Shown here: in pieces, positions 15,077 through 64,000 of the stretch
Numbering within the stretch: the stretch's first letter is position 1
Layout: each line of letters begins with the position of its first letter
Translations under genes and position numbers: made by a program
Notes under the pieces: model-generated
Seen by the model: the letters and a program-made list of their open reading frames with translations, nothing else
Told to the model about the DNA's origin: nothing
The model's database searches: none
IMG/VR virus record: IMGVR_UViG_3300001242_000012
DNA length: 64,000 bases
DNA from: a virus
Lineage: Duplodnaviria; Heunggongvirae; Uroviricota; Caudoviricetes
Direction: 5' to 3' (one strand)

Positions 15077-16504
15077 TTGAGTATCCATATCGTATTTTCA
15101 TCTCCTAAAATTAGCTATGATATTGTCCCCAGCAATACTGTCCTCATAATTGGATACGCAAGTGATGGTCCCGTATGGGAACCAACATATATCAATTCTT
15201 ATGAAGTTGCTAGTAGTACTTTCGGCAGTTGTGATTTATCTGAAGCCTGGTATGTTGCTAGCGAAGTTGGTGCTGTCGATATATATCTAATGAGAGTAAA
15301 TGGATGTGCCTCTTGGTACCAAGTACCATATAGAACACAGCCAGATATAATAGATAGTCCAACAGATGTGGCCTTTACTTTATATAGTAAGAATGCTGGA
15401 GTTAAGTATAATGATGCAATAAGCTTTAGTGTAACGGTAGCATCAGGACTAGCAGATAAGCTAATTATAAAGAATATTAATAACACTAATAGAACTTATG
15501 ATTTGACTATTTACCCTACATTAGGCCATCTATGTGAGGCCATAAATGACGACTCTAAGATTGGGCTTGTAGATGTTTGTGCGATATTAAATGATGACTT
15601 GTCATCAGCTTCTATCCATACTAGTTCATTAGCTAGTCAACCTTTCACAATGCTTAGTAATGGACGTGACTATGATTCTGAAACACTTGCACAGTCACTT
15701 TTAGAAGGATACGAGGACATGATTTTCAATTTTCCAGCTGAAGTTATTGTACTTAGCGGTGCTTATTACGCTGGTAATGAAAATTACATTAAGGACTTAG
15801 CTTCATTCTGCTATAAACGGAATGAGACAGGCATGAGTACTATTGGAATTGTTTCTGCAAGACCAAAGACAGACATTGAAACTGTCGAAGAGTATGTCAA
15901 TAGTTTAATTACGTCAGAACACAAGAATGATTTAACTGAAAATGATGGTGATTCTGGCCGTTTCGTATCTGTAATTGTTGGAGAAGCAAACATATATGAT
16001 GGCACAAGTACGTTCAAGACTACATTAGCTCCAGCAATTGGTGGATTGTGCACATTGCTTCCTAGTAGTAATAGCGTTATGAACAAACGTCTTTGCTCTG
16101 GTGAATTATTGTACTCATTTAGCCAGAAGGAAATTAATGCACTTACTAATGTAGGATTAAACCCAGTAAGAAATTCTATTCGTAATGGTCCAGTTGTAAA
16201 TTCGGCCTTAACTTTAGATAAAGACAAAAGTATATATAAATCACTAACATATGTTCGGATATCCCAGAAGATATCGAATGATGTGCAAGAAGTCCTATCA
16301 AATTTTATAGGTAGTATAGACACTGGATTTAACTCCTCATATATTGTGCAAAAGGTTACGACTGTTATGTCGAATCTAGTTACTAATAATTATGTAAGAG
16401 AATTCTCAATAAACATTACTGAATCAACTGACGAGAAGATTATAACTATAACTGCTGTACCTATTGGCGAGATAAAGTCAATAACTGTAACAGTAAGAGT
16501 ATAA
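15077..16504 (+). CDS. Tail sheath paralog 1
   Basis: LIIGYASDGP, YLMRVNG, SKNAGVKYN, LAPAIGGL, NALTNVGLNPVRN, YVRISQKI sheath-like motifs. Confidence 0.75.
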   Translation: MSIHIVFSSPKISYDIVPSNTVLIIGYASDGPVWEPTYINSYEVASSTFGSCDLSEAWYVASEVGAVDIYLMRVNGCASWYQVPYRTQPDIIDSPTDVAFTLYSKNAGVKYNDAISFSVTVASGLADKLIIKNINNTNRTYDLTIYPTLGHLCEAINDDSKIGLVDVCAILNDDLSSASIHTSSLASQPFTMLSNGRDYDSETLAQSLLEGYEDMIFNFPAEVIVLSGAYYAGNENYIKDLASFCYKRNETGMSTIGIVSARPKTDIETVEEYVNSLITSEHKNDLTENDGDSGRFVSVIVGEANIYDGTSTFKTTLAPAIGGLCTLLPSSNSVMNKRLCSGELLYSFSQKEINALTNVGLNPVRNSIRNGPVVNSALTLDKDKSIYKSLTYVRISQKISNDVQEVLSNFIGSIDTGFNSSYIVQKVTTVMSNLVTNNYVREFSINITESTDEKIITITAVPIGEIKSITVTVRV

Positions 16505-17121: not shown

Positions 17122-18762
17122 ATGACAGACTTATATCAATATCTTCCTGGTTTTACTATCGAATATAAAGATGGAGGTTTGACTATACCTCGTGAGACAG
17201 TAACAACTAATAGTGTAACACTGATTGGTACTGCTACCGATGGTCCAAAGCATGAACCTGTATCTGTATATCGTCCAGAAGATGCTGAATTAGTTTTTGG
17301 AAAACCATACAATGTTGCTAATGGCATAGCCAATGGAACAAGTCTCTTGCTTGGAATGTTGGAGAGTTACAATGCAGGTTGCCGCGATATCCGTTTAGTC
17401 AGAGTAGGTGGCGAGTTTGCGTCTGCCAACATTGAAGACATTACTGCGGTAACACCCGGAAAAGCAATTAAACTAACAGCCGTTTATGCAGGCTCCCTAT
17501 ACAATAACACTGCGTATACAGTTATTGTAGTAGAATCTAAAGCAACCACATTAACTATTACTAAACCAGCAGAGAAGGGTAGTTCAACTCTAACCTTCAA
17601 TATCACACCTACCATGACTATAGAAGAACTCATTAAACTTATCAATGACAATCCTAATAACAACGTTGTTATTGCTGAGTTAGGAGAAGATGGTATCTTA
17701 GCTGATGTAGCTGCAGATGTATTAGCTGTTAAACCAGCTACTAAGTTAACAGGCGGTAGCGATGGTCTTAATATGACTGCCGACGATACTTATCATGAAA
17801 TGTATCATGCATACCAGGCAATAGAGGATTATGAAACAGATTCTATTTCTGTACTTGGTTTGTATGCAGATGATGTGTATCCGGTAGGTCATGCCAAAGC
17901 TGGTGAAGAAATCGGTTATGCAGAACAACTAGCTAACCATTGTGCTAATGTATCTGAGAGAGGCATCGAAACATTCGGTGTTATCGCTTGTAAGCCAATT
18001 GCTACGGTAAGTCAGACTAACGTAAAGACTAAGGTAACAGCGCTTAGGACTAGAACCAATGCAAATAAATATTACAAGATAAAGGTTACTCATGATGAGG
18101 AGGCTGGGACCTTCACATTCCCTGCTTATGAGAAGAACGTATTGACTGGTATACAAATTTCAGTTGGTCATTATGTAAATGTAGTAGCAATGCCGGAATT
18201 GCAATTTGTTCACCCAGTTATCGGTAGATATTATGCTCCTGGTGCCGCTGCTTATGCTGGTTTAATATCTAGTTTGCCAGCAGAATCTGCTCCCACAAAT
18301 AAAATTCTATCTAATGTTCGTTCCCTCCGCTACAAGCTAAGTCCAGCCCAACTCAATGATCTGACTGAATATAACTACGTGACATTTAAAAATCGTACTG
18401 AAGGCGTAGCTGTTACAGATGGTTGTACAGCATCAGCTCCATTAGCTAATGGACAGAAATCCGATTATTCTCGTTTAAGTACGATGAGAATTGTTTTTGC
18501 TGCAGTTAAATTAGTGCGTGAAGAAGCTGAGCCATTCATTGGTGAGCCTAATGAACTTCCGCAACGTAATGCACTTAACACAGCAATCAAATCTGGACTC
18601 AATAAGATGAAAACTGCTGGTGCTATAACTGCCCATAGATTCAGCATCACTGCTACATTAGAGCAGAAAATTCTTGGCGAATCATATATTGACCTTGAAT
18701 TGGTTCCTGCATTAGAGAATCGCAAGATCAGAGTTAATGTATCTTTAAGGGCCACATTCTAA
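17122..18762 (+). CDS. Tail sheath protein (main)
   Basis: LPGFTIEYKDG, LIGTATDGP, IRLVRVG, APGAAAYAGL, SRLSTMRIV, IDLELVPALE.RKIRV. Confidence 0.9.
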   Translation: MTDLYQYLPGFTIEYKDGGLTIPRETVTTNSVTLIGTATDGPKHEPVSVYRPEDAELVFGKPYNVANGIANGTSLLLGMLESYNAGCRDIRLVRVGGEFASANIEDITAVTPGKAIKLTAVYAGSLYNNTAYTVIVVESKATTLTITKPAEKGSSTLTFNITPTMTIEELIKLINDNPNNNVVIAELGEDGILADVAADVLAVKPATKLTGGSDGLNMTADDTYHEMYHAYQAIEDYETDSISVLGLYADDVYPVGHAKAGEEIGYAEQLANHCANVSERGIETFGVIACKPIATVSQTNVKTKVTALRTRTNANKYYKIKVTHDEEAGTFTFPAYEKNVLTGIQISVGHYVNVVAMPELQFVHPVIGRYYAPGAAAYAGLISSLPAESAPTNKILSNVRSLRYKLSPAQLNDLTEYNYVTFKNRTEGVAVTDGCTASAPLANGQKSDYSRLSTMRIVFAAVKLVREEAEPFIGEPNELPQRNALNTAIKSGLNKMKTAGAITAHRFSITATLEQKILGESYIDLELVPALENRKIRVNVSLRATF

Positions 18763-18778: not shown

Positions 18779-19318
18779 ATGAAATCAAGTTACACAAAGA
18801 CATATACTAGTTTCAGCGGTGCTGACATTGTTGCAACATTTGCTGGAAAGGTAATTGGTGAATTACAAGCTATTACTTATTCAGTCACCCGTGAAAAAGC
18901 TCCGATCTACACAATGGGTTCTCCTGACCCTAGGTCCTTTAGCCGTGGTAAACGCGGTATTGCTGGTTCCTTAGTGTTCCAAGTGTTTGACCGTGATGTA
19001 TTCCACAATATGAAGGATGACAGTAAGTACATGACTGCTAGTGCCAACACAAAAGATCCCATGAGTATGGATGAATGGGATACTGCTCAGGATAATAATA
19101 ACGAATTCGTTGAGGCTGACGCAATCTATGCTGACCAAATTCCTCCGTTTGATATCGTAATAACATTCATGAACGAGTATGGTCAATCTTCTACTATGTC
19201 TATTTATGGTGTAGAAATACTCAATGAAGGTATGGGTTTATCAATTGACGATATAACTACTGAGAAAGCTTGCACATTCGTTGCTCGTGGACTCAGCCAT
19301 ATGATACCTAAAAGCTAA
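18779..19318 (+). CDS. Tail tube protein paralog 1
   Basis: Directly after sheath; IGELQAITYSVTREKAPIYTMG, RGIAGSLVF, IYGVEILNEG. Confidence 0.85.
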   Translation: MKSSYTKTYTSFSGADIVATFAGKVIGELQAITYSVTREKAPIYTMGSPDPRSFSRGKRGIAGSLVFQVFDRDVFHNMKDDSKYMTASANTKDPMSMDEWDTAQDNNNEFVEADAIYADQIPPFDIVITFMNEYGQSSTMSIYGVEILNEGMGLSIDDITTEKACTFVARGLSHMIPKS

Positions 19319-19366: not shown

Positions 19367-19912
19367 ATGACAAGCAAATATACTAAGACATATACTAGCT
19401 TTTCTGGTTCAGATATTGTAGCTACAATCACTCCAGTTGGTGGTTCAACTATGGTGATTGGAGAATTGCAAACTATATCCTACAGTATTCATAGAGAGAA
19501 GTTTCCAGTGAGAACGCTTGGTAGAATTAATCCTAAAGGCTTTACAAAGGGACCACGTACTATAGCTGGGTCGCTAATATTCACAGTATTTGATCGACAC
19601 ATTATAAGAAAACTCATCGAGAAAGGATTGGTAGGAACATCTTACAGCAGCATACCTGAACTCGATAAGAAGGATATGATGGTTAATATGAAGATGGATG
19701 AAATGCCTCCAATAGATATAACAATCACATTCAATAACGAATATGGCCAGAGGGCAGTTATCCGTTTATATGGTATCACCTTCATAGACGAAGGACAGAC
19801 AATGAGTATCGAAGATATGATCACAGAACAAACCATGTCTTACATGGCTATAGATATAGAGGTGCTGACTGAAATTGAAGAAGAAGATTATAGCTGGTTA
19901 ATTGGAGGTTAA
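19367..19912 (+). CDS. Tail tube protein paralog 2
   Basis: Shares YTKTYTSFSG.DIVAT, IGELQ, REK.P, IAGSL.F.VFDR, PP.DI.ITF.NEYGQ with 18779..19318. Confidence 0.85.
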   Translation: MTSKYTKTYTSFSGSDIVATITPVGGSTMVIGELQTISYSIHREKFPVRTLGRINPKGFTKGPRTIAGSLIFTVFDRHIIRKLIEKGLVGTSYSSIPELDKKDMMVNMKMDEMPPIDITITFNNEYGQRAVIRLYGITFIDEGQTMSIEDMITEQTMSYMAIDIEVLTEIEEEDYSWLIGG

Positions 19913-27727: not shown

Positions 27728-30700
27728 ATGAAGTTTAATGATAGCGAACTCTTTAGTATACCTAGTGTATTGGAACAGAAAGGTATTATTAATAGTATAG
27801 GTACTCCAAAAGTTCTTATGAACTTTGGTGGTTCAGGTAGGAATTACTACGACCCTAATTCAGAACCGACTAAAGAACAGATAATACGTTCTAAGAATAT
27901 CCCAGACTTCATTGGTGCACCTAGAAACATTGGTGGCGTAGTAGAGAGATCTAAAGTTAGTAGGGCACTAAACGCTGAAATAAATGGGGTACTTAGTAAC
28001 CCAAGCACTAGTGTGTTTAATTACATAAATACCAGGGGAGCTACTAGAGCGCAAAGAACAATAACCGCATGGGAGAACATGGTTAAAAATGTAGGCATGA
28101 CTCACTTAAGCTTAGATATTGAAAACCTCGGTGTCAGTCCACTTGCAAAGAATCAGAGCATGAATCTATTTGCTATGACTGAGGTAGGTTTGTCTAGTTG
28201 GCAGTTCAATGGCCTCAAGAGTGGCTCTCCAATGCTAGATAAAATGAATACTATGACATTAGCTGGCTTCGTAGATGAAAAGCAGAAGGTAGAACTAAAA
28301 AATTTAATCAAACAAGTAGAGAGCACAGGAATGGCTGGATTAACAGATGATCATAGACGTACACTGTGGTGGTTAATGAGGTATCAAGATTCTGAGGTAT
28401 TTAAGACAGAGACAATCCCAGGCATAGGAGATGTAAGACTTGTCAATAAAGATAAGCTTAAGTCACCATCTGAGTTACCAGACAGATCTACATTTACTAA
28501 TTTGAAAGCATACACTTCACAGATGAGAAATGGCTTAAAAAATTTATATGGCAATGGAAACTCAGGTAGCTATCTTGATGGCATGATTAAAGCTATAAAT
28601 CATCATGTAGAGAACATAGCTAAGAATGGCGGTAACCTCATGGGGTATAACTTCTTAGAACACGATATCCCTGCCATGATGGAATACTTTAATCAGACTA
28701 GGACTGCTCTTGGACCACAGAGTCCTATTAGTAGTAGCATTGAAACCCTAATGAAGAACCTACATATCATTAATAGTACTCATAGAGCGTTGGATGTTAA
28801 TAGACTTATTGACCTTGCATATCATGACCCTATCGGACAGATAGCACCGCTAATTGGTGACAAGAAAATGAGGGAACACTACAAGACATTAAGTGGTGGG
28901 ATAAGAGGGAAACAAGGTCTAACTACATTAGAGGTATTGTCTAATGCCTTCAATAATAGAATTGAACACTTTGCTGGTGGAGATGCTGAAGCAGTACCTA
29001 TGTTACTCAACTCCATTGGAGGTAATATTAATAGTAAGATAGCTAGTGCTAGAAGAATAGCAGCTGGGGCTAGCATATCATTAGACTGGAATGCTATAAG
29101 TGGTGGAGTACTTGCTATAGACAACAAGACAATAAAGTCTGATAGTAGTCTATTCTCAATTTCCGGATTAAGTCCTTATGAAAAGAATAAGTACGATGGG
29201 ATATATAAACTTGATGATACAGGCAAATTCATAGATGCTTACTCAGACAACCCCGATAAGCCTATATCTAGTGGGAACCTATATAAGAATACCGAGTACA
29301 GAATTCATAGCTTTAAGCAGATAGAGAAGGGCGCTCTTGAAGGTTTTGAACATGGTGGATGGGCATTAACCCTACGTAATGTAGATGAAGGATTATACCA
29401 TACCTTTGTTAGACCTGAGAATATTAGTGGTACTGGGTTCGATAGTATACGTAGTATATTCTCTCATTTAGTACCATATAATGCTGAACATATTACTGGT
29501 GTCAGTGGTGAAGAAACTAGGACAGAGAGAATGAAGGACAGAGCTCTACGTGCATATTATAGAATCTTTGATACCGATGGAGGCCATGTAAGAGCGGAGA
29601 GATACATGAGAGCTCTTGATGCAATTGATAAAGCTGGAGTCAATAGAGCTTCTATGGATGATTTAACTAAGGGACAATTTAAAGATCTATTCAATTCTGA
29701 GCAACAAGCTAGAAACTTCTACTATATGCAAGATAGGCTAAGAGCTGAGAGAGGAATGATTAATGCTGTCATTAGTAGCGGAACATTCCAAAGTCTTAAA
29801 GGAGTACAGAAGGACTTTGCCCTTACTGCCCTACAAGACATAATGGAAGGTAGGGTCCAAATACCTGACTTACGTAAAGCTACTGGTGGGATTAGTCCAG
29901 CTAAGAAAGTTATTAAGACTACAACTAACAATAGAATGTTACAACTATCAGATAATATAGTTCTTAATCTTGGTAGTTATAAAGGTATAGTGTCACAGCT
30001 AAGGCAAATCACCAAAAGACCCATCGACAAAATCGAACTACCAGTGCTAATAAATAAGTTAGGTGGTAAGCATATATTAGATCGTACTGAAGTTACTAAC
30101 TTTCTAAGACTATCAGAGATCCAGAAGCAAGGTCCGAGAGAAAGTAACTTTGTACTTAAGCAAATAGCAGCAAAGCTTTTTGATAGGACTAGGATAGCTA
30201 ATGATATTGTTTCTGGTATGAAGATAGACGACATACAAGCTAAGAACTTAGCTAATGAGTTCTTGTCATATAAGGTTGCCCATGTTGATGCCAATAATGG
30301 AGGCATATGGGAAAAGCTTACCCCTGATCAAATGCGGTTGGTAGCTAATCATGCGCTAGATGAAGGACAAAGACGTGGTAGTAGTGCATGGCAGAAGATA
30401 GATAAAGCTTTTGTTCCTAACCTAGCGGCAAACCAAGAGTTTGCTAAGATGTTAGAAGCGCATAATGCTATTATTCATGAACAGCTTTCTCCACTAAAAA
30501 GACTAGGGCCTTTATTCGGGCTTAATAGGAAAGCAGAAGAACCAATAAAGAAGCTACTATCAAGGTATCTTACAGATGCAAATATAGATGGGACTATATT
30601 GTCATCACCTGACAATAAGGGTTTTATCTTTGCTCTATATGATGAGAAGAAAGCAGCAACAGTAGGTAAGCAGACAGTAGAACAGATAATGAATAATAGC

Positions 30701-33700
30701 GATGTAGTTAAGGTTAACATCCCATTGGTGGATGAAAGAAGGATTCTTACTGTTGGTAGGGTTATGAGAATTAACCAGATGGACTTCACACTTGATGGTA
30801 AGAACATTGGTGTTGAAACAAGCTTCGATAAGATTCTACAATCTCAGGTTGGTATATCTAAACGAGTTAAAGAAGCAATGTTGAAAGGAGACTATGCACA
30901 AGCACAGGCACTTGTCAACTGGGCTCAGAACAAAGTACTTAAAGACTTATCTGGTGCCAATTTCCTTGACTCCGATGAAGTAATGGATACTAGGAAGATA
31001 CGCAACCTAAGTCATGCTAGTATAAGACAGCGTAGTGAAGTAATCTACTTTGAAGGAATAAAAGAATTCCTAGCTGGGAAGGACATCTCAGGTTTGAACT
31101 TAACTGACTCTGTAAACCTGAATAGAACCATTGCAGAGAGATTAAGTGTAAAACTTGGTACTCCTATCGATGTTATAAATGACGTATTAAATCCTCACAC
31201 ACTCAAGGAAGCTCAGTTTACTGGTAAGAATGGAAGAATCAGTCGTAGTGTCAATGACATACGTCAGTTCATTCCATTTGGATACCATTCATCTGCAGCA
31301 ACAATGAGGATGACACAGGCAGAGAATATCCATCCATTCCACCCTAAATCAGCAGAAGCACTTAGAACGAAGTATAGTGAACTAGCTAACCCCCTACTCA
31401 TGACTGAAGCAGGGAAAGCTAGATATGGAGTCACAGGTAATAACTTAGCACCATGGGTTACTGTTAAGACAGCTTACATGGATGATAACCAAGTACAGAA
31501 GATGATTGCTGAGGCTGAGAGGACTGGAGCTCCTTTAACCGGATTAGTAGAATCGACGTATGACGCCAGAGCATTTATGCGTGGCGATATAGCTAATGAT
31601 CTTCTCAAGATGAAGATGGTTAACGAGTATGTAGTTAGTGACATTAATAAGGAGATACTAGCTTCGATAGAGAAGGGCGACCCTTATACTATCGCTCCCT
31701 CTGAAAAGCCATTCACCATTGGTCAATTGGTAGAGTCTAAGATAGTAGATGGCGAAGGTAATACTTTCGGCGTACTTCAGGGAGATGCAAGGTATAATAA
31801 GAAACAGCCTGGTGTAGTAAATGCTATAACGAAACTTGGAGAAAACAAATATAAAGTTTCAGTAGAAAGAACACTACCAGCAGCAAATGGTCTTAAACTT
31901 ATAACCTCTAGCGGTGATAAGATGACTTTGACTCTGGTTGAGAACGATAGATGGAACAGTTTGTTCGGAGCAGAGGCCGATAAGCTTCATCTTGTAATGG
32001 GCTCGCAAGCACTCAAGCACGGCGGACATGGAGACATCATAAGTAGCCAAGTAAGGGCTATGGTTAATGAAGTACAGAATCAGATTACTACAAAGAATCT
32101 AGTAAGAAACAAAGTAGAAGATGATGTAATCAAAGTTCTCAATAACTTCTTCGGCAATAGCGGGTTCAAGTTTGAAGACGTACCAGGAAGCAAGAATAAA
32201 ATGCTTGTGATGATCAATAATCCTAAGAACCAAGTAATAGATCACAAGCTATTCAAGACGCAAGTGCTTGATAAAGTAAGTGACATTATAGGAAGCAACT
32301 TAACGGACAAGTTATTAATTAATGTTGCTGGTGTTGGTAATATAATGACTGGTTATGAGAATGTAGGAGCACAACCTATTGAACCATGGTTCAAAGCAGT
32401 AGGTAGTGAGGGTGGTATATACAAGATAGGACCCAAGGAAATAGGCATGTTTCGACTTAATGGGTTAACTGCAACAGCTAAAGAATACGAGAAGATGGTT
32501 AGAGAACAAGCTGGAGTAGATCTATTAGATGGCGCAGTTGCAGACAAGCTTAGCGAAAATGGACGCATAGAAGCTGGGAAGAAGGAAGTAAAGTCACAGT
32601 TAAGAAAGTATGAAAGGTCAATTAATAGTCTAACTGGAATGATAGACAGTAGAGACACAGTAATACATTCTCAGACTCCTATAGGAGAAACTGGAGAAGG
32701 CAGAGTATCATTATCATCATTTAAAAGATTCCTACGTTCTGGAGATGTCAAGAGTGATATCGACTATACCGGTACGTGGTATGACGACATAGAGAAGATA
32801 GCTAATAACCAAGTACATTCTGGAGAACCTGGAGCTCTTACTCCAAAGAAGGCAGAGAAAATATTGTCCCGTGGTGGAGCGGTATTTGAGTTACCGTTCT
32901 ATGTAACTGCTGGTGATAATATAATCAATAAAGTCTTTCTACCTATAGGACAGCCTAGGAAACTAGGGGTTGCTCAAATGCCACAGGCTAATGAATTATT
33001 AGCAGCAAGTGGTAGAGTGATTAGAACGCTCCAAGACATAGCTACGCTTGACCTAACAGGGAAAGAAGCAAGCACAAGCCTACAAAAGGCAATGGATCAT
33101 TTCACCAACGTAAACATCAGAGGTGTCAGCGATTCTAAAGGTCTTGTTTATAACAGTATAGAATCTGCTAGACTCCAACATAGCGGACAATTCTTAGTTC
33201 AAACATTCTCTCCTGGACAAAAGAAAGCAGCAGCTACTGCTGAAATATCCCTTGGTAGATTAAGAGAAATGACTAAGGGTATGAAGAAAGGTGTTCCTGA
33301 GCTATTAGAAGAATTAGCACTCGGAGACACTAGAGAACTTCAGGAGAAGTATGGAGTTAAAGGTCTGCCTGGTATAGTAGGTCGTTATCCTACAGAAGGC
33401 TTAAGGTCTATAGAACCTACCTGGCTCAGAGTTAACGAGGCATTAGATAGGCTAGCTCCTCATGCAATTCAAGTAACTGTTGGTGATGCCGTAGCTTATG
33501 CAGCAGACAACGATGGTGATTTTATGTCCACTCTGCTTGCACACTTCAAAGGCAAAACCAGATGGCAGATTGAATCTCAACTACGGTCTGGCACAGGTGC
33601 AATAGGTGAAATAGCAGCGCATATAAGAGAGATAGAACCTAGAAGACAGTTCTATGATGAATTAGTATCTAAGCTATATGAAGCAGACAATAGAAAGAGT

Positions 33701-35086
33701 AGCAGTGCATCATACGGAGATTGGGTGAAGGCTTATACGGGTGAAAATATAGATCTACCAAAGGCAGAGCTACAAACCGTAGGAAGCGTCGCAAGAGCCG
33801 AATTAGAAGCAAGACTTGGCCGCTCATATATTGGTTACTCTTCGAACGTAGCTACTTCAATGCGTAAGATGGCAGAGATTGCTATGAGAATAAATCCTCA
33901 GTCGTTTGACTTGAAGAAAGCACAAGCTGTAACAGCCCTCGGTGAATTGGTAACACAGTCTTCTATCTCGTCTAAACACTTCTCGAAATCTGCACTTGAT
34001 GATCATCTAGCAAAAACAATTGATGAATGGGCTGGAATAGATTCTGCAGGACAAGAAGCAGAGAGGAATAAGCTACTTGATAAGAGAATAAGTTCTTCAT
34101 CCGAAATGGTCAATGCAATGATTCGTGGAGATAGAGAAACCTTCATTGAACATGCGAAGATAGTAGGAGCTATGGATGTAGACGCTACAGACATGGAAGA
34201 GTACCGCAGACAAGCCTATAGTGGAGGAATAAAGGGTAGTTCTAAATTTGCAGTTCGTCAGATCGCTACTGTGTATGAAGGGTTTGGCGCTGTCAATGAT
34301 CTAAAGACTGTTATGGGTGGAGATCTAGAAGGGGTAATACACAGCGCAACAAATAGAATGGGCGTAAGTTCAGGGATTAAAAATCTTAACACCCTGGTCG
34401 ATGTGTTAAATGGAAACCTTTCTGGAGAAGCACCAACCTCCTCAGTAACAAACGTATGGAGGATATTGCACGGTGAGCAGAAGGCTGAGGAACTAGAGAG
34501 AAAGGCATTTGAACGTGCTGAACAACGAACCAAGTGGGCATTAGATGAGAGGGCTTCATCTAATATGGTTCTAAATAGTGCCTATGCTGACCAGAGAACT
34601 AGGCCGGACATGGTTACTGTTGGCGAACAAACAATGCGAAATATATTCAGGGATGTTGAACATGTCGCTGGTGGCTCTAAATTAGCTGGTGCAGGATGGG
34701 GAGCTGGAGCATTTGCAGGACTAATGATGGTAGGTAATATGTTTGCAGACCCTCTACCTAAAGACATGATGCCTCAGCCGGACCAAGCTCCACCCATAGA
34801 TGGCGGTGGTTATATACCTACTCCTGATGCTTCTCCTGGAGGACCAGTAGCTAGGATAACACAGAGTGGAGAAGGTTACGAAAACCTACAGGTTATGATT
34901 AGAGCTAGGGATGCTAATGGCTTGTCTAATGAGCAGATCGGACAATTAGTACAAGGACAGATATCATCTGCAATGCCAGTTAATATGAATATGAATATTA
35001 CGTCTAATGATAACACTCAGAGGATAGATAATATGTGGGTGCAAAGCGTTGTAACTAATGCCTTGACCAAGGGCCAAGCATTCTAG
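27728..35086 (+). CDS. Single-chain two-barrel (beta + beta-prime fused) RNA polymerase with N-terminal DEDDh exonuclease; probably virion-packaged
   Basis: Ordered motifs IPFGYH, TAYMD..YD1279, GLK1390-x5-GDK1398, GGIYKIGPKE, R1815LQHSG, GR1886YP, AAD1927NDGD1931FM, LGELVTQSSISSKH2084; Exo motifs D130/E132, D313, H414/D419. Confidence 0.88.
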   Translation: MKFNDSELFSIPSVLEQKGIINSIGTPKVLMNFGGSGRNYYDPNSEPTKEQIIRSKNIPDFIGAPRNIGGVVERSKVSRALNAEINGVLSNPSTSVFNYINTRGATRAQRTITAWENMVKNVGMTHLSLDIENLGVSPLAKNQSMNLFAMTEVGLSSWQFNGLKSGSPMLDKMNTMTLAGFVDEKQKVELKNLIKQVESTGMAGLTDDHRRTLWWLMRYQDSEVFKTETIPGIGDVRLVNKDKLKSPSELPDRSTFTNLKAYTSQMRNGLKNLYGNGNSGSYLDGMIKAINHHVENIAKNGGNLMGYNFLEHDIPAMMEYFNQTRTALGPQSPISSSIETLMKNLHIINSTHRALDVNRLIDLAYHDPIGQIAPLIGDKKMREHYKTLSGGIRGKQGLTTLEVLSNAFNNRIEHFAGGDAEAVPMLLNSIGGNINSKIASARRIAAGASISLDWNAISGGVLAIDNKTIKSDSSLFSISGLSPYEKNKYDGIYKLDDTGKFIDAYSDNPDKPISSGNLYKNTEYRIHSFKQIEKGALEGFEHGGWALTLRNVDEGLYHTFVRPENISGTGFDSIRSIFSHLVPYNAEHITGVSGEETRTERMKDRALRAYYRIFDTDGGHVRAERYMRALDAIDKAGVNRASMDDLTKGQFKDLFNSEQQARNFYYMQDRLRAERGMINAVISSGTFQSLKGVQKDFALTALQDIMEGRVQIPDLRKATGGISPAKKVIKTTTNNRMLQLSDNIVLNLGSYKGIVSQLRQITKRPIDKIELPVLINKLGGKHILDRTEVTNFLRLSEIQKQGPRESNFVLKQIAAKLFDRTRIANDIVSGMKIDDIQAKNLANEFLSYKVAHVDANNGGIWEKLTPDQMRLVANHALDEGQRRGSSAWQKIDKAFVPNLAANQEFAKMLEAHNAIIHEQLSPLKRLGPLFGLNRKAEEPIKKLLSRYLTDANIDGTILSSPDNKGFIFALYDEKKAATVGKQTVEQIMNNSDVVKVNIPLVDERRILTVGRVMRINQMDFTLDGKNIGVETSFDKILQSQVGISKRVKEAMLKGDYAQAQALVNWAQNKVLKDLSGANFLDSDEVMDTRKIRNLSHASIRQRSEVIYFEGIKEFLAGKDISGLNLTDSVNLNRTIAERLSVKLGTPIDVINDVLNPHTLKEAQFTGKNGRISRSVNDIRQFIPFGYHSSAATMRMTQAENIHPFHPKSAEALRTKYSELANPLLMTEAGKARYGVTGNNLAPWVTVKTAYMDDNQVQKMIAEAERTGAPLTGLVESTYDARAFMRGDIANDLLKMKMVNEYVVSDINKEILASIEKGDPYTIAPSEKPFTIGQLVESKIVDGEGNTFGVLQGDARYNKKQPGVVNAITKLGENKYKVSVERTLPAANGLKLITSSGDKMTLTLVENDRWNSLFGAEADKLHLVMGSQALKHGGHGDIISSQVRAMVNEVQNQITTKNLVRNKVEDDVIKVLNNFFGNSGFKFEDVPGSKNKMLVMINNPKNQVIDHKLFKTQVLDKVSDIIGSNLTDKLLINVAGVGNIMTGYENVGAQPIEPWFKAVGSEGGIYKIGPKEIGMFRLNGLTATAKEYEKMVREQAGVDLLDGAVADKLSENGRIEAGKKEVKSQLRKYERSINSLTGMIDSRDTVIHSQTPIGETGEGRVSLSSFKRFLRSGDVKSDIDYTGTWYDDIEKIANNQVHSGEPGALTPKKAEKILSRGGAVFELPFYVTAGDNIINKVFLPIGQPRKLGVAQMPQANELLAASGRVIRTLQDIATLDLTGKEASTSLQKAMDHFTNVNIRGVSDSKGLVYNSIESARLQHSGQFLVQTFSPGQKKAAATAEISLGRLREMTKGMKKGVPELLEELALGDTRELQEKYGVKGLPGIVGRYPTEGLRSIEPTWLRVNEALDRLAPHAIQVTVGDAVAYAADNDGDFMSTLLAHFKGKTRWQIESQLRSGTGAIGEIAAHIREIEPRRQFYDELVSKLYEADNRKSSSASYGDWVKAYTGENIDLPKAELQTVGSVARAELEARLGRSYIGYSSNVATSMRKMAEIAMRINPQSFDLKKAQAVTALGELVTQSSISSKHFSKSALDDHLAKTIDEWAGIDSAGQEAERNKLLDKRISSSSEMVNAMIRGDRETFIEHAKIVGAMDVDATDMEEYRRQAYSGGIKGSSKFAVRQIATVYEGFGAVNDLKTVMGGDLEGVIHSATNRMGVSSGIKNLNTLVDVLNGNLSGEAPTSSVTNVWRILHGEQKAEELERKAFERAEQRTKWALDERASSNMVLNSAYADQRTRPDMVTVGEQTMRNIFRDVEHVAGGSKLAGAGWGAGAFAGLMMVGNMFADPLPKDMMPQPDQAPPIDGGGYIPTPDASPGGPVARITQSGEGYENLQVMIRARDANGLSNEQIGQLVQGQISSAMPVNMNMNITSNDNTQRIDNMWVQSVVTNALTKGQAF

Positions 35087-35098
35087 GAGGATACGTGA

Positions 35099-35383
35099 AT
35101 GATCATAAGATCTAGTGGAAAGTTAATAGGTGTATCCTATTCTGATTATGATAGGTGGGATATAGCTGCAAGGGTAGATGGGAAATATGTTCACACATAT
35201 TCTAATCCACAACCAGCAGATAGCAATACTATCGGTCCTAAATTATACAACTTAATGAGTACGCTAGGTCCATTCAAACCTATAGACAATACTCCTAAGA
35301 AACTATTTAGGGCCGATGTTTATGTTGAATATATTGATGAATCGATTATGTATATAGAGTTAGCTAATTGGGAGGGAAGATAA
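35099..35383 (+). CDS. Hypothetical protein, 94 aa
   Basis: RBS AGGAGG; TAATG-coupled to the next gene. Confidence 0.6.
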   Translation: MIIRSSGKLIGVSYSDYDRWDIAARVDGKYVHTYSNPQPADSNTIGPKLYNLMSTLGPFKPIDNTPKKLFRADVYVEYIDESIMYIELANWEGR

Positions 35384-49166: not shown

Positions 49167-50450
49167 GTGTTATCTAATACAAAGATAGATTGTATATATT
49201 TAATGCTTACAGAGAATTGCAATCTGCGTTGTGTTTATTGCTATGAGCAGAGTAAGGCTAGCAGTGTTATGACCTTAAACTTAGCTAAGTCTTCTGTAGA
49301 TATGCTATTTACTTCTGGTAGCAATAAACTGCTAGTGGAACTATTTGGTGGGGAACCACTACTAAACTTTGATGTTATCAAACATATTATCCCATATATA
49401 AGATCTAAGGAAGAAGAAACTGGGAAGCAATGTAAAATTGGTATGTCTACTAACCTAACATTATTAACAGACGATATGATAGATGTAATAGAAGAAATAG
49501 ACGATATCCAATTTAGTATCGACGGTATTGCTAAGGTGCAGAATAAGAACAGACCAATGGCTAACGGTAAAGATTCATTTGATATGGTCGATGTCAACCT
49601 ACCAAAGGTTGCTCGACCATCAATTAACTATTCTGTTCGCATAACGATACAACCAGATAACGTTAAGTACTTAGCTGAAAGTGTCATATTTTATCATAAT
49701 AAGTATGGTATTAATAACATTAAGACACAATGCGTACAAGAAACTACCTGGTCAGAGAAGGAAGTTAAGGAATATCAAAGACAGTTGAGGATGATAAGTG
49801 ACTATATGTATGGGCTTCATAGGTCTGGGAAGTCTTTTACTTTCGATCCACTTAGTCATTATCTTGGTTTACCACCTTACATCAACCCAGATAAGACATG
49901 TGGAGCTGGACATAAATCAATTGGGATAACTCCTAATGGAGACATATATCCATGCCTTAGGTTCTATACTTACGACAGAAACAGAGGAACAGAAGACTAT
50001 AAAATGGGTAGCATTCATACGGGTATTAACTTAGACAAATCTAGTATATTCCGTAGTTATAATAGAAGTAGTTTAGAGAAGTGTTATGAGTGTGAACACG
50101 ATTCATATTGTGATAGGTGTTTAGCCTGTAATCTTGAGGTGTGCGGAGACATGTTTGTAAGTCCTTCAGAACATTGTAAAACCGTAAAGGTTGATAGTAT
50201 AATTGGTAAACAACTTCGAGATAGACTGAACATAGACAATTTACAACAAGAGAAGCTTTCAACTTTAATTGATGGAATGAATAATAAGCTCTCCAGTATA
50301 ATAAGCAGACAAAAGAATACAGAGGATTTATTTAATAGCATAACCCCATCGGTAGATAGTTTGATGGAAAGGTTAATAAACTTAGAAAATACTAATAACA
50401 ACCTACGTCTTGAAGTCGCTGATTTAAAATTAGAACTAAGAAGGAGATAA
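49167..50450 (+). CDS. Radical SAM/SPASM-domain enzyme with C-terminal coiled coil
   Basis: CNLRCVYC (C18/C22/C25), FGGEPLLN, IQFSIDG, CGAG..GITPNGDIYPC, CYECEHDSYCDRCLAC..C SPASM cysteines. Confidence 0.92.
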   Translation: MLSNTKIDCIYLMLTENCNLRCVYCYEQSKASSVMTLNLAKSSVDMLFTSGSNKLLVELFGGEPLLNFDVIKHIIPYIRSKEEETGKQCKIGMSTNLTLLTDDMIDVIEEIDDIQFSIDGIAKVQNKNRPMANGKDSFDMVDVNLPKVARPSINYSVRITIQPDNVKYLAESVIFYHNKYGINNIKTQCVQETTWSEKEVKEYQRQLRMISDYMYGLHRSGKSFTFDPLSHYLGLPPYINPDKTCGAGHKSIGITPNGDIYPCLRFYTYDRNRGTEDYKMGSIHTGINLDKSSIFRSYNRSSLEKCYECEHDSYCDRCLACNLEVCGDMFVSPSEHCKTVKVDSIIGKQLRDRLNIDNLQQEKLSTLIDGMNNKLSSIISRQKNTEDLFNSITPSVDSLMERLINLENTNNNLRLEVADLKLELRRR

Positions 50451-58795: not shown

Positions 58796-61700
58796 ATGGC
58801 TAATTATCCAGATGACCTAGACAATTTTACTAGGAAACAGAATGCTATTCCCGGTATGGAAGATACTACTGGAGATTGGGTAGATGCTGAGCACATAAAT
58901 GATCTCCAGGACGTAGTTATTTCTATAGAACAAACATTAGGCAAGACACCACAAGGAAGCAGCTTGACAGTAAGGGATAGGATAGCTAGTCTTGAAAGCT
59001 CTAAGGCACTGAAAACTCCCTCCGTATGTATATTTCTTGGTAATCCTATCATATTCAATGGAGCTGTTTCAAAGGCACAAGCGGCTAACGAATTCTTATA
59101 CTATGACCATGTAGTATTCGGACCCAACTTGGAGAACTCAGCTAATCCAGATTACAATAATTTTAAAGAGTTGATTGCCTACATTAGAGCGAGCCGCGAT
59201 ATTAAATTATATGGATATATTGATGTAGGCGTTATTACATCTAACTTTAACCTAACTCAAATAGAAACTAAGATATCTGCATGGGATGTTCTTGGTGTTG
59301 ATGGCGTATTCTTATACAACTTTGGATATGATTTTGGAGTGTCAAGAGCTCGTCAAAATGATATTATCAATTTCTTGCATAGTCGTGAACTGTCAGCATT
59401 TGTACAATCTACTCATGCTGTAGATACATTCGGAAGTGCCTACAATGCACAATACAATCCTGACTATACTAATTCACTGATTGATAAAAGAGATATATAT
59501 CTTCATGAAAATATAGCAGTTGATACTACATCAGTGAATGCGTATATCAATTCAATTGAATACGCAAAGAGCTTAATCACATATCGTAATAACTTAGGCA
59601 CCAAGATATTTGGTGTAGCGACTATAGACCATAATCAGACACAAGAAGTGGCTCAGTCATATTTCGATTATGCACAATCAGTAGCTATACTTTGTAGCTA
59701 TGATGCTTTTTATGCTGTGACAGAGGATTACGGTATTAATAGTAATGCACTCAAACTGTATCGTAACTTGTCTTTAGTGGGTAATTACTATGACAAGAAT
59801 CCGCAAATATCCGAAGTTGCTGGTACGTATACTAGAGTTGGAAGCTTCGGCAAAATAACAGTAAACACAGTTAATCATTCTTATACTCTTGAGGGTATAT
59901 CAATACCTGGGGAAAACATTACTGGTACTATTAATTACGCTACAATTGTTGATTCTGTGATAGATGCCATTAACGCTAATCCAGATTCTATAATAGATCC
60001 TGAAAAGATAGCACCACTTTTGGTGAGCAATATTAAGGATATCGTTATCCAAGCTATAAATGATTCATGTAACTCTGGGTTAACGATCAATGATGCTAGA
60101 ATTGGAGACTTGAATGCTAGTCATATAGTTGCTGGCGATATAGCAGCCGGTAGGATTCAGGCTAATATAATACAAGCTATTAATGCATACGTACAAAGTT
60201 TGACTGTTGAGCAGATAAATGCTGGTGTTATTAATGCTAACGCAATCAGTGCAAGCGTAGTTGATGCTATTAACGCGAATATAGGTAGTGCAGTAATAGA
60301 TCAGGCTCATATAGGTGATCTAAATGCTAGTCATATTACAGCTGGAGATATATCAGCTGATAGGATTCAGACTAATGTTGTAGATGCAATTAACGCTAAT
60401 CTCGGTACAGCAACCATAGATGGGGCTGTAATCAGGAATGCGACTATTACTTCCGCACAAATTGCTAGTGCTACCATAACTTCGGCCAATATAGCACTGG
60501 CTACTATTACTTCCGCACAAATAGCAACAGCAGCTATTGGTACTGCCAATATTCAGGATGCTGCAATAATTAATGCCCACATATCAAATGCAGCAATAAA
60601 TACAGCGAACATTGCTAATGGAGCTATAACCAATGCGCAAATAGCAACAGCAACTATAATGACATCCAACATACAAAATGCATCTATAACATCAGCATTA
60701 ATTGCTGATGCTTCAATAACAAATGCTCATGTTGTTAGCTTAGATGCCGGAAAGATTACAACTGGATATTTGGGTGCAGGTAGAATTGAGGCAGGAAGTA
60801 TTACTGCCAATATGTTGGCTGCTGGCACGATAACTGCGGATTCAGCTATTATAGGAATTGCTGCTATTACGTCTGCTAATATTGCTGATGCGGCTATTAC
60901 TAGTGCACACATAGCGGATGCTACAATCACAAATGCTAATATCGCCAATGCTACCATAACAAGTGCTAACATAGCGCTTGCCACTATTACTAGCGCCAAT
61001 ATCGCTAATGCTACCATAACAGCCGCTAATATACAGCTCGCTACAATCACTAATGCTCAAATAGCTGATGCCACAATTACCAATGCAAATATAGCTTTCT
61101 CAACAATCACTTCTGCTAACATAGCCGATGCTACTATCACTAGTGCAAAAATTGCATTAGCAACAATAACTAATGCTAATATAGCAGATGCTACTATCGG
61201 AACAGCACAGATAGCTGATGCGGCCATAACTACTGCTAAAGTAGGCACAGCTCAGATCGATACAGCTAACATTAAGGACGCAGCAATCACCACAGCTAAG
61301 ATTGGTACAGCTCAAATTAGTACTGCTCTCATTGCTGATGCTTCAATAACAAATGCTAAGATAAGTGATCTAAGTGCTGAAAAGATTAATGCTGGATACA
61401 TTAATGCCGACAGAATGAAAGCAGGAGTTATTGATGCAATCAACGCACGATTTGGAGAAGCATATATTGATGGAGCTGTCATAACAAATTTAGATGCAGC
61501 TGTCATTACTGCAGGTTCTATAAGTACAGATATACTTAAGTCCACAGTGATACAAGCTATTAATGCGACAGCAGATACTCTATTTATTAACAGCTCTAAG
61601 ATTACTTCTATCAGTGCTGATAAACTTAATGTAGGTTTTGGTGGGTATAACGTCTTAAAAAATAGTGACTTCTTCTTTAATGATGTAGAGGGATCATGTC

Positions 61701-64000
61701 TTAACTGGACAGCAATTGGGACAGAACCAACTAGACCAAGTACTTATGGGTTCCGTTGGAGCAGAAAATGCTTTTATGTTAATGATGTTACAGCAGTTAC
61801 TAGAGGTTACGAGCAGACAATAAGTAACGATTATGCTGGAAAAACTCTTGCACTAAGCGCCTGGGTAAAATGGAAAAACGTAGTGATGGGAACAACCTCA
61901 TCTAACAAACTATTGGTTGAACTGCATTATCAGTACAATAATGGTGTTAGTGATGTAGACCAGTTTGAAAGGATATCATTAGTCGGAAGTTGCACTGTAG
62001 AGAGTGAATTTGAGCGTGTACAGAAAATCATGTCTCTTACTCCACTAGCTCCTAACTGGACTGTAAATTTTATTAAGGTTAGAGTTTACCTTAATGAATG
62101 TGCTGGAGAATTTTCAGCTACATGCGTCCAATTAGAAGAAGGTGATATAGCTACAGCATGGACTAGAAACCCAGAAGAAATGAATGGTGCTCAGAATAAT
62201 GTACTCATTACTTCTGAGGGGATTATTATCACTGGCGGTAAATTAACAGTAGTGGACCCTACTGGTACTGTGACAATTAATAATGGTAATATAGCAGCAG
62301 AGACGATCACAACTTCTATGATTTCGACAGACGGTCTTAATGCTTCAGTAATAAGTGCTGGCACAATAGATGCTAACTCAGTTAGCATTGCTACGAAAGC
62401 TGGAGGCACTGGGAATAGATTCTTTATTGATACAAATGGATTAAGCGTACAAGATAAAGATACTATAGATGGCACCACTAACATGGTGAGAATTGACAGT
62501 AGTGGACTTTCTATTTCAAGTGATGGTGGAAGTATCTGGACTAACAAGATTACTGGCCTTGGATTATCAGTTACTAGTGCTGAGATAGCTTCATTGGATG
62601 CTGGGAAGATTACTACTGGTACGCTAAGTGTTACAGGATCTATGTCTGTATCAGGTGGAAATGTAGTGTTAAGTAGTTCAGGGGTAACTATTAGTGGAGA
62701 TTCTGGTATCTACGTATCAGGTGCTGGCGGTATTAGGATTAAAGAGGGCACTCTCAAGGTAGATAATAACGAAAATATAACCCAAGTAACTATAGGTCAG
62801 TATACCACAGGCCAGTATGGAATAAAAGCTGGTAGCACCACATTAGATTCAAGTGGTATTACAATAGGGCAAGGTTCTATAGACATAGGTAGTGGTGTAT
62901 TTACAGTAACAAATACAGGTATTCTTACTGCTACAAGTGCAACCATCACAGGTGCAGTCAATGCAACTAGTGGTTATTTCGGCGGTAGTGTTGATGGTAT
63001 TAGTGTTGGATCTACTGGTTTAGATGTAGTTGGAAGCGGAACAATAACTTCAGGTACAGCAGTATTAAGTAGTTCAGGCTTAACAATCACAGGTTCAGGA
63101 GCCAGCATTAATCTTAATTCTGGTAAGTTCATCGTAGCAAGTGATGGCACACTAACAGCTACTGCTGGTACAGTAGGTGGTTGGACTCTAAGTACTGATA
63201 CTCTCACAAGCGATAATGGACTCGTTACTATTAAATCATCATCTACTAGTAATTACATAAGAACTGCCAATGCGCTGATATCTCCAACTAAAGTTGTCCA
63301 GTTAGACAGCACTGGATTAACCATTACAGGTGGAGCCATATCTGTTCAGACAACTGATGGATCAACTGCAATAGATGGTAATGGAATTAACGCTTCAACT
63401 ATTACTACTGGAACACTTACAGTAGGTACTGGGATGTCTGTGTCAGGTGGTAATGTAGTGTTAGGTAGTACAGGGATTACAGTCAGTGGATCATCTGGTA
63501 TTACCGTTACTGGAATAGATGGTATTACAATCAGTACTGGAACACTTAAGGTGCTGAACGGTACTACCCCAGAAGTCATAGTTGGCCAATATACAACTGG
63601 TAACTTTGGAATTAAAGCTGGGAACACTATTCTTAATAGCAGTGGAATAACAATGAATCAGGGTTCAATAAGTATAAACTCAGGTGTATTCGCAGTAACT
63701 TCTGCTGGAGCTTTGACAGCCACTTCTGCTACCGTGACTGGTGCAATCAATGCAACGTCTGGATACTTTGGAAGCTCAACAAACGGAATAACAGTCAACT
63801 CTACTGGCCTTACTGTAAGTGGTACTGGGACTATCGTATCTGGAAAAGTAATTGTTAAGAACGATAGAATAGTTGTGAATAATGCATCAGATATACTCCA
63901 AGTGACACTAGGATATAATGGAACTAGCTACGGTATATTCGCCGGTACTACTAAATTAGATAGTACTGGACTTAACATGACTCAAGGGTCTATTACCCTT
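58796..64000 (+). CDS. Long tail fibre/adhesin, 3'-partial (at least 1735 aa, missing from track)
   Basis: RBS GAGGTGA, ATG58796; I read no in-frame stop to the window end; anchor module, TIM-barrel GH-like domain, ATITSANIA-type repeats, NVLKNSDF CBM-like domain, Gly/Ser/Thr beta repeats. Confidence 0.85.
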   Translation, partial: MANYPDDLDNFTRKQNAIPGMEDTTGDWVDAEHINDLQDVVISIEQTLGKTPQGSSLTVRDRIASLESSKALKTPSVCIFLGNPIIFNGAVSKAQAANEFLYYDHVVFGPNLENSANPDYNNFKELIAYIRASRDIKLYGYIDVGVITSNFNLTQIETKISAWDVLGVDGVFLYNFGYDFGVSRARQNDIINFLHSRELSAFVQSTHAVDTFGSAYNAQYNPDYTNSLIDKRDIYLHENIAVDTTSVNAYINSIEYAKSLITYRNNLGTKIFGVATIDHNQTQEVAQSYFDYAQSVAILCSYDAFYAVTEDYGINSNALKLYRNLSLVGNYYDKNPQISEVAGTYTRVGSFGKITVNTVNHSYTLEGISIPGENITGTINYATIVDSVIDAINANPDSIIDPEKIAPLLVSNIKDIVIQAINDSCNSGLTINDARIGDLNASHIVAGDIAAGRIQANIIQAINAYVQSLTVEQINAGVINANAISASVVDAINANIGSAVIDQAHIGDLNASHITAGDISADRIQTNVVDAINANLGTATIDGAVIRNATITSAQIASATITSANIALATITSAQIATAAIGTANIQDAAIINAHISNAAINTANIANGAITNAQIATATIMTSNIQNASITSALIADASITNAHVVSLDAGKITTGYLGAGRIEAGSITANMLAAGTITADSAIIGIAAITSANIADAAITSAHIADATITNANIANATITSANIALATITSANIANATITAANIQLATITNAQIADATITNANIAFSTITSANIADATITSAKIALATITNANIADATIGTAQIADAAITTAKVGTAQIDTANIKDAAITTAKIGTAQISTALIADASITNAKISDLSAEKINAGYINADRMKAGVIDAINARFGEAYIDGAVITNLDAAVITAGSISTDILKSTVIQAINATADTLFINSSKITSISADKLNVGFGGYNVLKNSDFFFNDVEGSCLNWTAIGTEPTRPSTYGFRWSRKCFYVNDVTAVTRGYEQTISNDYAGKTLALSAWVKWKNVVMGTTSSNKLLVELHYQYNNGVSDVDQFERISLVGSCTVESEFERVQKIMSLTPLAPNWTVNFIKVRVYLNECAGEFSATCVQLEEGDIATAWTRNPEEMNGAQNNVLITSEGIIITGGKLTVVDPTGTVTINNGNIAAETITTSMISTDGLNASVISAGTIDANSVSIATKAGGTGNRFFIDTNGLSVQDKDTIDGTTNMVRIDSSGLSISSDGGSIWTNKITGLGLSVTSAEIASLDAGKITTGTLSVTGSMSVSGGNVVLSSSGVTISGDSGIYVSGAGGIRIKEGTLKVDNNENITQVTIGQYTTGQYGIKAGSTTLDSSGITIGQGSIDIGSGVFTVTNTGILTATSATITGAVNATSGYFGGSVDGISVGSTGLDVVGSGTITSGTAVLSSSGLTITGSGASINLNSGKFIVASDGTLTATAGTVGGWTLSTDTLTSDNGLVTIKSSSTSNYIRTANALISPTKVVQLDSTGLTITGGAISVQTTDGSTAIDGNGINASTITTGTLTVGTGMSVSGGNVVLGSTGITVSGSSGITVTGIDGITISTGTLKVLNGTTPEVIVGQYTTGNFGIKAGNTILNSSGITMNQGSISINSGVFAVTSAGALTATSATVTGAINATSGYFGSSTNGITVNSTGLTVSGTGTIVSGKVIVKNDRIVVNNASDILQVTLGYNGTSYGIFAGTTKLDSTGLNMTQGSITL
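60400..61370 (+). repeat. Penta/decapeptide coding repeats (A-[TA]-I-T-[SN]-A-[NQK]-I-A-[DNL])
   Basis: Dozens of degenerate 15/30-nt units inside the fibre ORF; boundaries approximate. Confidence 0.85.
62609..63844 (+). repeat. Internal duplication of about 148 aa in the fibre (62609-63055 and 63401-63844)
   Basis: Both copies: ITTGTL.V..MSVSGGNVVL..GQYTTG..GIKAG..QGSI.I.SGVF.VT..G.LTATSAT.TGA.NATSGYFG; start of a third copy near 63900. Confidence 0.85.

Follow-up and report, generated by a model that had tools for sequence, protein, structure and literature searches.

A probable single-chain two-barrel RNA polymerase with an exonuclease-like domain in a tail-module giant of a contractile-tailed jumbo phage

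Here, we report that a 2,452-amino acid (aa) protein, termed P0001, encoded in the tail module of a jumbo phage (IMG/VR record IMGVR_UViG_3300001242_000012), very probably contains an intact two-barrel RNA polymerase (RNAP) at aa ~1187–2200, as judged from structural models and family-wide conservation. The window, i.e., the whole stretch of DNA that was analyzed, is 64,000 nucleotides long and corresponds to positions 150198-214197, minus strand, of the 244,052-bp phage record, which is complete by CheckV estimate; the DNA of the record originates from groundwater metagenomes, and among the sequencing runs listed as containing it there is no RNA run. The initial annotation of this DNA had proposed a single-chain RNAP, beta-like and then beta'-like, with counterparts of the cellular motifs, and AlphaFold2 (AF2) modeling with Foldseek, profile alignment with hhalign, and conservation in 13/13 relatives all agree with that proposal. 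By analogy with known virion polymerases, we favor, with some reservation, a role for the whole chain as a structural giant of the tail module of a jumbo myophage like Bacillus phage 0305phi8-36, which would deliver an active RNAP to the cell.

Polymerase module

Relatives of P0001 were collected by an exhaustive phmmer search over 1.84 billion cluster representatives, giving 16 proteins, most of them 2,260–2,450 aa long and every named one labelled hypothetical. Two word-indexed searches for homologues retrieved nothing but the query, searches of Pfam, PHROGs, and the PDB (single sequence) with the whole of P0001 gave no match, and a scan of IMG/VR for relatives with single-protein patterns confirmed no locus, the family alignment being too divergent for patterns. 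Conservation was counted over 13 aligned full-length relatives with 20–30% identity, to which all counts of the form n/13 refer. Forty-two columns are invariant, and they are concentrated in the polymerase and exonuclease motifs; such clustering in catalytic motifs at this level of identity argues for selection for activity. The motif strings listed in the initial annotation were located in P0001 at the residue numbers it gave (11/11).

The AF2 model of aa 1100–2200 has a mean predicted local distance difference test score (pLDDT) of 70.5 and a predicted template modeling score (pTM) of 0.65. Foldseek found at least 500 matches to it in the PDB, of which the top 50 are RNAP beta or beta' chains only, and the top 20 of a structure search independent of Foldseek are two-barrel polymerases only. 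The latter search gave a weak clamp-like match for the connector that lies between the two barrels. With a separate model of aa 1690–2215, the Foldseek matches were beta' chains only. The best match among Swiss-Prot entries of the AlphaFold Database (AFDB) is the beta-beta' fusion RNAP of K. lactis pGKL2 (expectation value, E, 7.7e-10), in which both barrels are colinear with ours. Among the structure matches listed there is none to crAss gp66 (6VR4), YonO, or PolD; in BFVD, a crAss-like protein stands at rank 45 (E 5.6e-4). The two-barrel superfamily is characterized by paired double-psi barrels in one core, and the predicted model has this feature, i.e., Foldseek of the whole model gives beta and beta' chains and the barrels are predicted together, in line with the pairing that the initial annotation expected of a structure model.

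On the beta' side, the likeness can also be found in the sequence. Aligned by hhalign with E. coli beta', the family gives E 3.4e-4 over 137 columns, with NRYPT paired with NRAPTLH, ADxDGD paired with NADFDGD, and the SGRF motif paired as well. A HMMER profile of the family searched against PDB sequences has largest RNAP subunits as its top 11 of 14 matches, over the same stretch as hhalign. The beta' motif alignments of the initial annotation are thereby reproduced by two methods. Matches to PF00623 that stay below threshold, one per genome, fall within the KLEB27-3 and WH1 homologues (13.5–20 bits versus a cut-off of 25.3 bits), and neither PF00562 nor PF00623 exceeds the Pfam gathering threshold in P0001 or in its genome. 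The next-best tblastn matches of the family are phiKZ-like jumbo-phage beta' genes. No alignment of the family with E. coli beta was obtained by hhalign.

Eight residues universal to two-barrel RNAPs were listed by Ruprich-Robert and Thuriaux, a set including Rpb1 D479/D481/D483, R446, and P448, and Rpb2 K979/K987 and D837 (PMC2919709). Counterparts of all eight are kept in 13/13 relatives of P0001. D1927, D1929, D1931, R1886, and P1888 are invariant and lie in the stretches that hhalign aligns to NADFDGD and NRAPTLH of E. coli beta'; K1390 and K1398 are each K or R in 13/13, in strands of the module that align to beta, and the G-x-K-x5-G-x-K spacing equals the canonical spacing of GDK and GNK. 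Position 1279 is D or E in 13/13, its equivalence to Rpb2 D837 being drawn from element order and motif only. The other invariant polymerase columns (13/13) are A2028, R2029, G2036, N2040, Q2077, S2081, and K2083. In canonical multisubunit RNAPs, the beta barrel contains an inserted SBHM 'flap' (Iyer et al. 2021, PMC7824862); in our model, an all-beta stretch (model strands 221–284) lies between D1279 and K1390, the place expected of a flap.

With the barrels of P0001, multisubunit, jumbo-phage, and killer-plasmid enzymes score higher than the group of gp96, QDE-1, and YonO, which suggests that this single-chain enzyme is closer to multisubunit RNAPs than to the YonO/QDE-1/crAss group.

Bridge helix and EQxxISSK motif

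Beyond the beta'-like barrel, both models have two long helices with four invariant residues (Table 1). Residues 12–830 of Sulfolobus Rpo1N align to residues 537–954 of the aa 1100–2200 model, and with both models the Rpo1N alignments end at chain positions 828–830, opposite aa ~2050–2053. As Rpo1N ends at its bridge helix, the helices at aa ~2010–2055 are most simply read as the bridge helix of P0001. The proposed polymerase would thus run from the beta-like barrel through the connector, the beta'-like barrel, and the bridge helix to a helical tail. The bridge-helix-like segment of the initial annotation is thus supported by structure alignment at aa ~2019–2055. When the family was aligned by hhalign with the bridge-helix and trigger-loop part of E. 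coli beta', only an insignificant match elsewhere was returned.

The conserved EQxxISSK motif follows ~20–30 aa past the bridge helix, in a region that hhalign leaves unaligned with E. coli beta'. From its sequence, it may be the N-terminal part of a trigger loop. The initial annotation went further and described a uniquely retained, cell-like trigger loop; with so short a distance from the bridge helix and no hhalign alignment, that description is not upheld. A trigger loop, were one present in P0001, would be nothing special.

Exonuclease-like domain, middle region, and C-terminal module

The N-terminal domain is, by its residue set, a putative intact DEDDh exonuclease: D130 and E132 (ExoI D-x-E), D313 (ExoII D), and H414 and D419 (ExoIII H-x4-D) are invariant in 13/13. 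A profile of this part finds DEDDh exonucleases in the PDB (E 3.4e-4), and also Cas2-DEDDh and the exonuclease domains of PolC and PolB. Weak matches to PF00929 are seen in 6/13 members, in none of which the Pfam gathering score is reached. For the middle region (aa 446–1110), the PDB sequence search gave no informative match.

The last ~150 aa are common to P0001 and ORF146 of 0305phi8-36: a profile of the C-terminal module aligns over its full length with the C terminus of ORF146 (E 2.6e-5 in a search of 10 sequences), and it also matches the WH1 and KLEB27-3 proteins (E 1e-41 to 1e-45).

Table 1. Features of P0001 and of the surrounding tail genes, with positions in the window
Feature	Residues or size	Position	Strand	Motifs or basis
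Tail sheath paralogue pair		15077-16504 and 17122-18762		as in 0305phi8-36 ORF137/139
Tail tube paralogue pair		18779-19318 and 19367-19912		as in 0305phi8-36 ORF140/141
ORF142 counterpart	265 aa			comparison with 0305phi8-36
Two-gene tail chaperonin pair	145 aa and 183 aa	20728..21736	+	BLASTP, ORF143 E 3e-31, ORF144 E 1.5e-27
Upstream giant	1,991 aa	21740..27715	+	ORF145 homologue, BLASTP 39% identity over 646 aa, E 2e-135
Giant tail-module protein P0001	2,452 aa	27728..35086	+	open reading frame list and translation; frame open throughout
DEDDh 3'-5' exonuclease-like domain	aa ~120-425	28085..29002	+	D130, E132, D313, H414, D419
Middle region	aa 446-1110	29063..31057	+	conserved in family alignment
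Beta-like module, first double-psi barrel	aa 1187-1603	31286..32536	+	D1279, G1388-x-K1390-x5-G1396-x-K1398
Connector, possibly clamp-like	aa 1609-1812	32552..33163	+	conserved ELP and SGRF motifs
Beta'-like double-psi barrel		33179..33544	+	R1886-x-P1888, D1927-x-D1929-x-D1931
Bridge-helix-like helices	aa ~2010-2055	33755..33892	+	invariant A2028, R2029, G2036, N2040; two long helices in both models
Conserved EQxxISSK motif	aa 2071-2084	33938..33979	+	Q2077, S2081, K2083 invariant; conservation
C-terminal module	aa 2300-2452	34625..35086	+	Gly/Ala-rich hydrophobic segment and conserved tail
Downstream baseplate hub giant	1,977 aa	35368..41301	+	ORF147 homologue, BLASTP E 4e-62; phrog_20474 E 2e-216

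Tail-module setting and the ORF146 slot

Genes for the terminase, portal, major capsid protein, two tail sheath paralogues, and baseplate proteins are all found in the window on the same strand. The sheath pair together with the baseplate and head genes identifies a contractile-tailed jumbo phage, and the contractile-tail setting of the initial annotation stands with these two sheath genes. The gene for P0001 lies within this late structural operon. Ribosome-binding sites in the phage are of strong AAGGAGGTG types. The isolate relatives of the 2,452-aa gene come from Bacillus hosts only; its isolate homologues, KLEB27-3 gp034 and WH1 gp095, are annotated as structural proteins.

Gene for gene, the tail module is orthologous to ORF140–147 of 0305phi8-36 (Table 1), down to the C-terminal/N-terminal paralogy within the chaperonin pair, which is the same as in ORF143/144. 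This orthology of the flanking genes places P0001 in the slot of ORF146. ORF145, the counterpart of the upstream giant, is a virion protein by mass spectrometry; a look-up of the upstream 1,991-aa protein in the ESM Atlas gave no usable match. ORF146 (2,537 aa) is likewise a virion protein by mass spectrometry and was called a 'hypothetical tape measure protein', a name assigned from tail length; according to the authors of that work, only the last 60 residues of ORF146 align with prophage counterparts (PMC2147016). Outside the C terminus, neither BLASTP nor the full family profile detects similarity between P0001 and ORF146 (L004 40623-48236), and a search of ORF146 for D-x-D-G-D, R-x-P, and bridge-helix motifs found none. 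An isolated ExoI-like string, YLDIETTG, is seen near ORF146 residue 1223, but Pfam detects no exonuclease domain in ORF146.

The order of chaperonins, ~2,000-aa giant, P0001 homologue, and hub is also found in WH1, KLEB27-3, two metagenome contigs, and Acinetobacter phage vB_AbaM_ME3 (ME3). In ME3, the slot flanked by the ORF145 homologue and the hub is filled by the hypothetical protein ME3_36 (1,603 aa, L012 13173-17984), to which the beta' profile gives a match (E 7e-4); R-E-P and D-H-D-Q-D are retained in ME3_36, BFVD has a fold match for it, and no DEDDh motifs were found in it. ME3 offers a cultured Gram-negative system for tests.

The initial annotation placed P0001 between the tape measure and the hub, a position said to match no known system. 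The hub side of this placement is borne out, whereas the upstream gene is an ORF145 homologue, not an established tape measure. The position does have counterparts, namely the ORF146 slot itself and the virion RNAP fused to the tape measure in P23-45 (PMC10770324). The ORF146 slot and the shared C terminus are compatible with P0001 being the tape measure; but the label of the slot comes from tail length, and the ORF145-like giant is nearer to the chaperonins.

The N terminus of the hub giant has an SNase-like domain (PF00565, E 8e-6), so that a second nuclease adjoins the polymerase-exonuclease protein in the predicted injection apparatus. The hub of metagenome contig L008 also gives a faint SNase match. 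Between P0001 and the hub, overlapping the start of the latter, there is a 94-aa open reading frame (ORF; window 35099-35383), and L008 has an 86-aa gene at the same place (17180-17440). Further downstream, a radical SAM gene (window 49167-50450; phrog_1802, E 8e-40) lies within the tail-fibre cluster, and the largest ORF of the genome (4,122 aa; genome C1:143034-155402) follows the baseplate and fibre genes at 58796-64000 and continues past the window edge.

Other polymerases in the genome and its relatives

No other protein with D-x-D-G-D was found in the genome. Genome scans for PF00623, PF00562, PF00940, and PF05183 gave no match, nor did a scan for sigma region 2. Two weak sigma-70 region 4-like matches (genome C1:43112-43189 and C1:95601-95735; E 2.4e-5 and 7.7e-4) are below the Pfam cut-off and may represent small transcription regulators.

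Five related phages were compared. Only 0305phi8-36 has a YonO/RdRP-like polymerase (PF05183; orf99, record 209484-211547, E 1.1e-20), and only 0305phi8-36 has a protein without polymerase motifs in the ORF146 slot. This suggests that each genome has one phage two-barrel polymerase, tail-borne or free, in what is a small sample. A 2021 survey of 224 jumbo phages reported two-barrel RNAPs only for its group 1 and, within group 3, for two phages, namely 0305phi8-36 and Clostridium phage c-st (PMC7824862).

Two other proteins in BFVD were matched in fold by the polymerase model, i.e., A0A8S5SD80_1, a 'minor tail protein' of Siphoviridae sp. ctnpt50 (E 7e-19), and A0A075BUT7_2 of Microcystis phage MaMV-DC (E 2.5e-7); the family profile of P0001 gives no sequence match to MaMV-DC. 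Judging from these predicted folds, a metagenome-derived phage and a cyanophage may also have polymerase-like giants associated with their tails that have so far escaped annotation.

Discussion

The closest parallel to P0001 is gp96 of phage P23-45 (also in P74-26, G20c, and TSP4), a virion RNAP fused to the tape measure that transcribes pre-early genes (Chaban et al. 2024, PMC10770324; PDB 8H2M/8H2N). By analogy, the two are of the same kind and not of the same family: no sequence similarity between them was detected; in gp96, a siphovirus protein, the RNAP is N-terminal and precedes a ruler of ~3,800 aa, whereas P0001 belongs to a contractile tail and has its RNAP in the C-terminal half with ~250 aa after it; gp96 is clampless, whereas the connector of P0001 may be clamp-like; and the DEDDh exonuclease is an extra of P0001 relative to gp96. 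P23-45 has in addition a second, non-virion RNAP, whereas no second RNAP was found in the genome of P0001. To our knowledge, the P23-45 enzyme is the only published two-barrel polymerase that is fused to a tail protein, and our literature search found no paper describing a tail-giant polymerase in the phage lineage of P0001. What is new with respect to P23-45 is therefore the contractile-tailed jumbo lineage, the DEDDh fusion, the closer likeness to multisubunit enzymes, and the absence of another polymerase from the genome searched.

Other systems share one feature or another. ORF146 of 0305phi8-36 occupies the same slot, has a similar length (2,537 versus 2,452 aa), and shares the C-terminal ~150 aa, but it is without polymerase motifs, and that phage has the YonO/RdRP-like orf99 instead. 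The RNAPs of AR9 and phiKZ (PDB 7S00/7S01, 7OGP, 8QUE) are divided among four or five separate subunits, which are either carried in the head or synthesized after infection, whereas P0001 carries both barrels on one chain in a giant of the tail module. The pGKL2 RNAP (Swiss-Prot P05472) is, like P0001, one chain with beta followed by beta' (query 146–853 colinear with target 409–876); unlike P0001, this 982-aa enzyme belongs to a cytoplasmic yeast plasmid, is non-virion, and has no exonuclease, and its identity to P0001 is ~10%. Phage enzymes such as phi14:2 gp66 and SPbeta YonO are single-chain two-barrel RNAPs as well, and gp66 is packaged in the virion within a giant protein; both, however, belong to the QDE-1/RdRP-like branch, the RdRP Pfam model that detects orf99 finds nothing in the P0001 genome, and crAss-like phages are podoviruses.

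In the scheme that we favor, P0001 would be made late and assembled into the tail (in the lumen or in the hub region), and contraction of the sheath would expel it ahead of the DNA. The C-terminal hydrophobic segment would then keep P0001 at the entry site, where it would transcribe the first genes of the entering genome with no need of the host polymerase. Early transcription by virion polymerases is known from crAss-like gp66 and from the virion RNAP (vRNAP) of N4. Virion delivery for early transcription had been proposed in the initial annotation and is plausible.

Several points weigh against this scheme. A folded polymerase of ~1,000 aa must unfold to pass the tail tube, and it is not obvious what an exonuclease would do in an injected transcriptase. 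When 114 upstream regions were searched for exact k-mers, Shine-Dalgarno sequences and tRNA arms were all that recurred, with no repeated promoter motif, though degenerate promoters are possible. The word 'structural' for gp034 and gp095 is annotation only, no paper on phages KLEB27-3 and WH1 having been found in our literature search. On the side of the fold, the confidence of the AF2 model is moderate (pLDDT ~70), the likeness to beta is structural only and undetectable by sequence, and the family is small, with 13–16 sequences for alignment.

Other readings were considered alongside. As the only polymerase gene found in the genome, P0001 could act in the cell through newly made copies, i.e., it could be an active polymerase that is made late and used within the cell, for instance for late transcription or for the synthesis of primers or other RNAs, and its location in the tail operon would then be incidental. 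We consider this unlikely, as the position between the ORF145-like giant and the hub is strictly kept across distant relatives, the C-terminal module is common with a virion protein identified by mass spectrometry, the isolate homologues are annotated as structural, and an enzyme required only late would have no need to be fused into a 2,452-aa chain with a hydrophobic anchor at its C terminus. With a similarly low probability, the exonuclease and the two-barrel module may jointly serve something other than early transcription, such as pulling in the 244-kb genome, primer or RNA-templated synthesis, proofread synthesis, or attacking the nucleic acids of the host; the closest matches by structure are nevertheless DNA-dependent RNAPs of phages and cells, PolD appears in no list, and the published virion two-barrel enzymes are transcriptases (PMC10770324).

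A purely structural ruler or plug whose polymerase part is an inactive relic is quite improbable. ORF146, a tape measure by tail length, has no polymerase motifs, and the sequence of the family diverges fast, both of which would suit a relic; but it is in the catalytic motifs of both enzymes that the invariant columns cluster, as expected under selection for activity, and the ~250 aa after the polymerase are by themselves too few for a ruler. That the whole result is an artefact of chance motifs and over-confident structure prediction, as the negative searches of Pfam, PHROGs, and the PDB (single sequence) and the modest individual E-values might suggest, is extremely unlikely given the agreement of the HMMER profile, hhalign, Foldseek with two models, the non-Foldseek structure search, BFVD, and AFDB, with all top structural matches being two-barrel polymerases.

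Beyond this one phage, we tentatively suggest, as a possibility that we hold less firmly than the role proposed for P0001 itself, that a whole contractile-tailed jumbo lineage, i.e., 0305phi8-36-like Bacillus phages, ME3, and many uncultured groundwater and soil phages, has as its sole RNAP an exonuclease-fused enzyme of the multisubunit branch, built into the protein of the tape-measure slot. The idea of the tail-fused polymerase is hereby extended to contractile-tailed jumbo phages, and since cultured relatives exist in Bacillus and Acinetobacter, it can be tested at the bench. If true, delivery of cell-type transcription machinery through the tail lumen would be a general and independently evolved strategy, and the pairing of exonuclease and polymerase would be a kind of enzyme so far undescribed for two-barrel polymerases. 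P0001 also bears on the repeated capture and fusion of two-barrel polymerases, with the comparison of relatives suggesting an either/or pattern within one phage lineage, i.e., a tail-borne polymerase or a YonO-like gene. Injected phage RNAPs let the viral program start without the host enzyme, and they are sources of new transcription tools.

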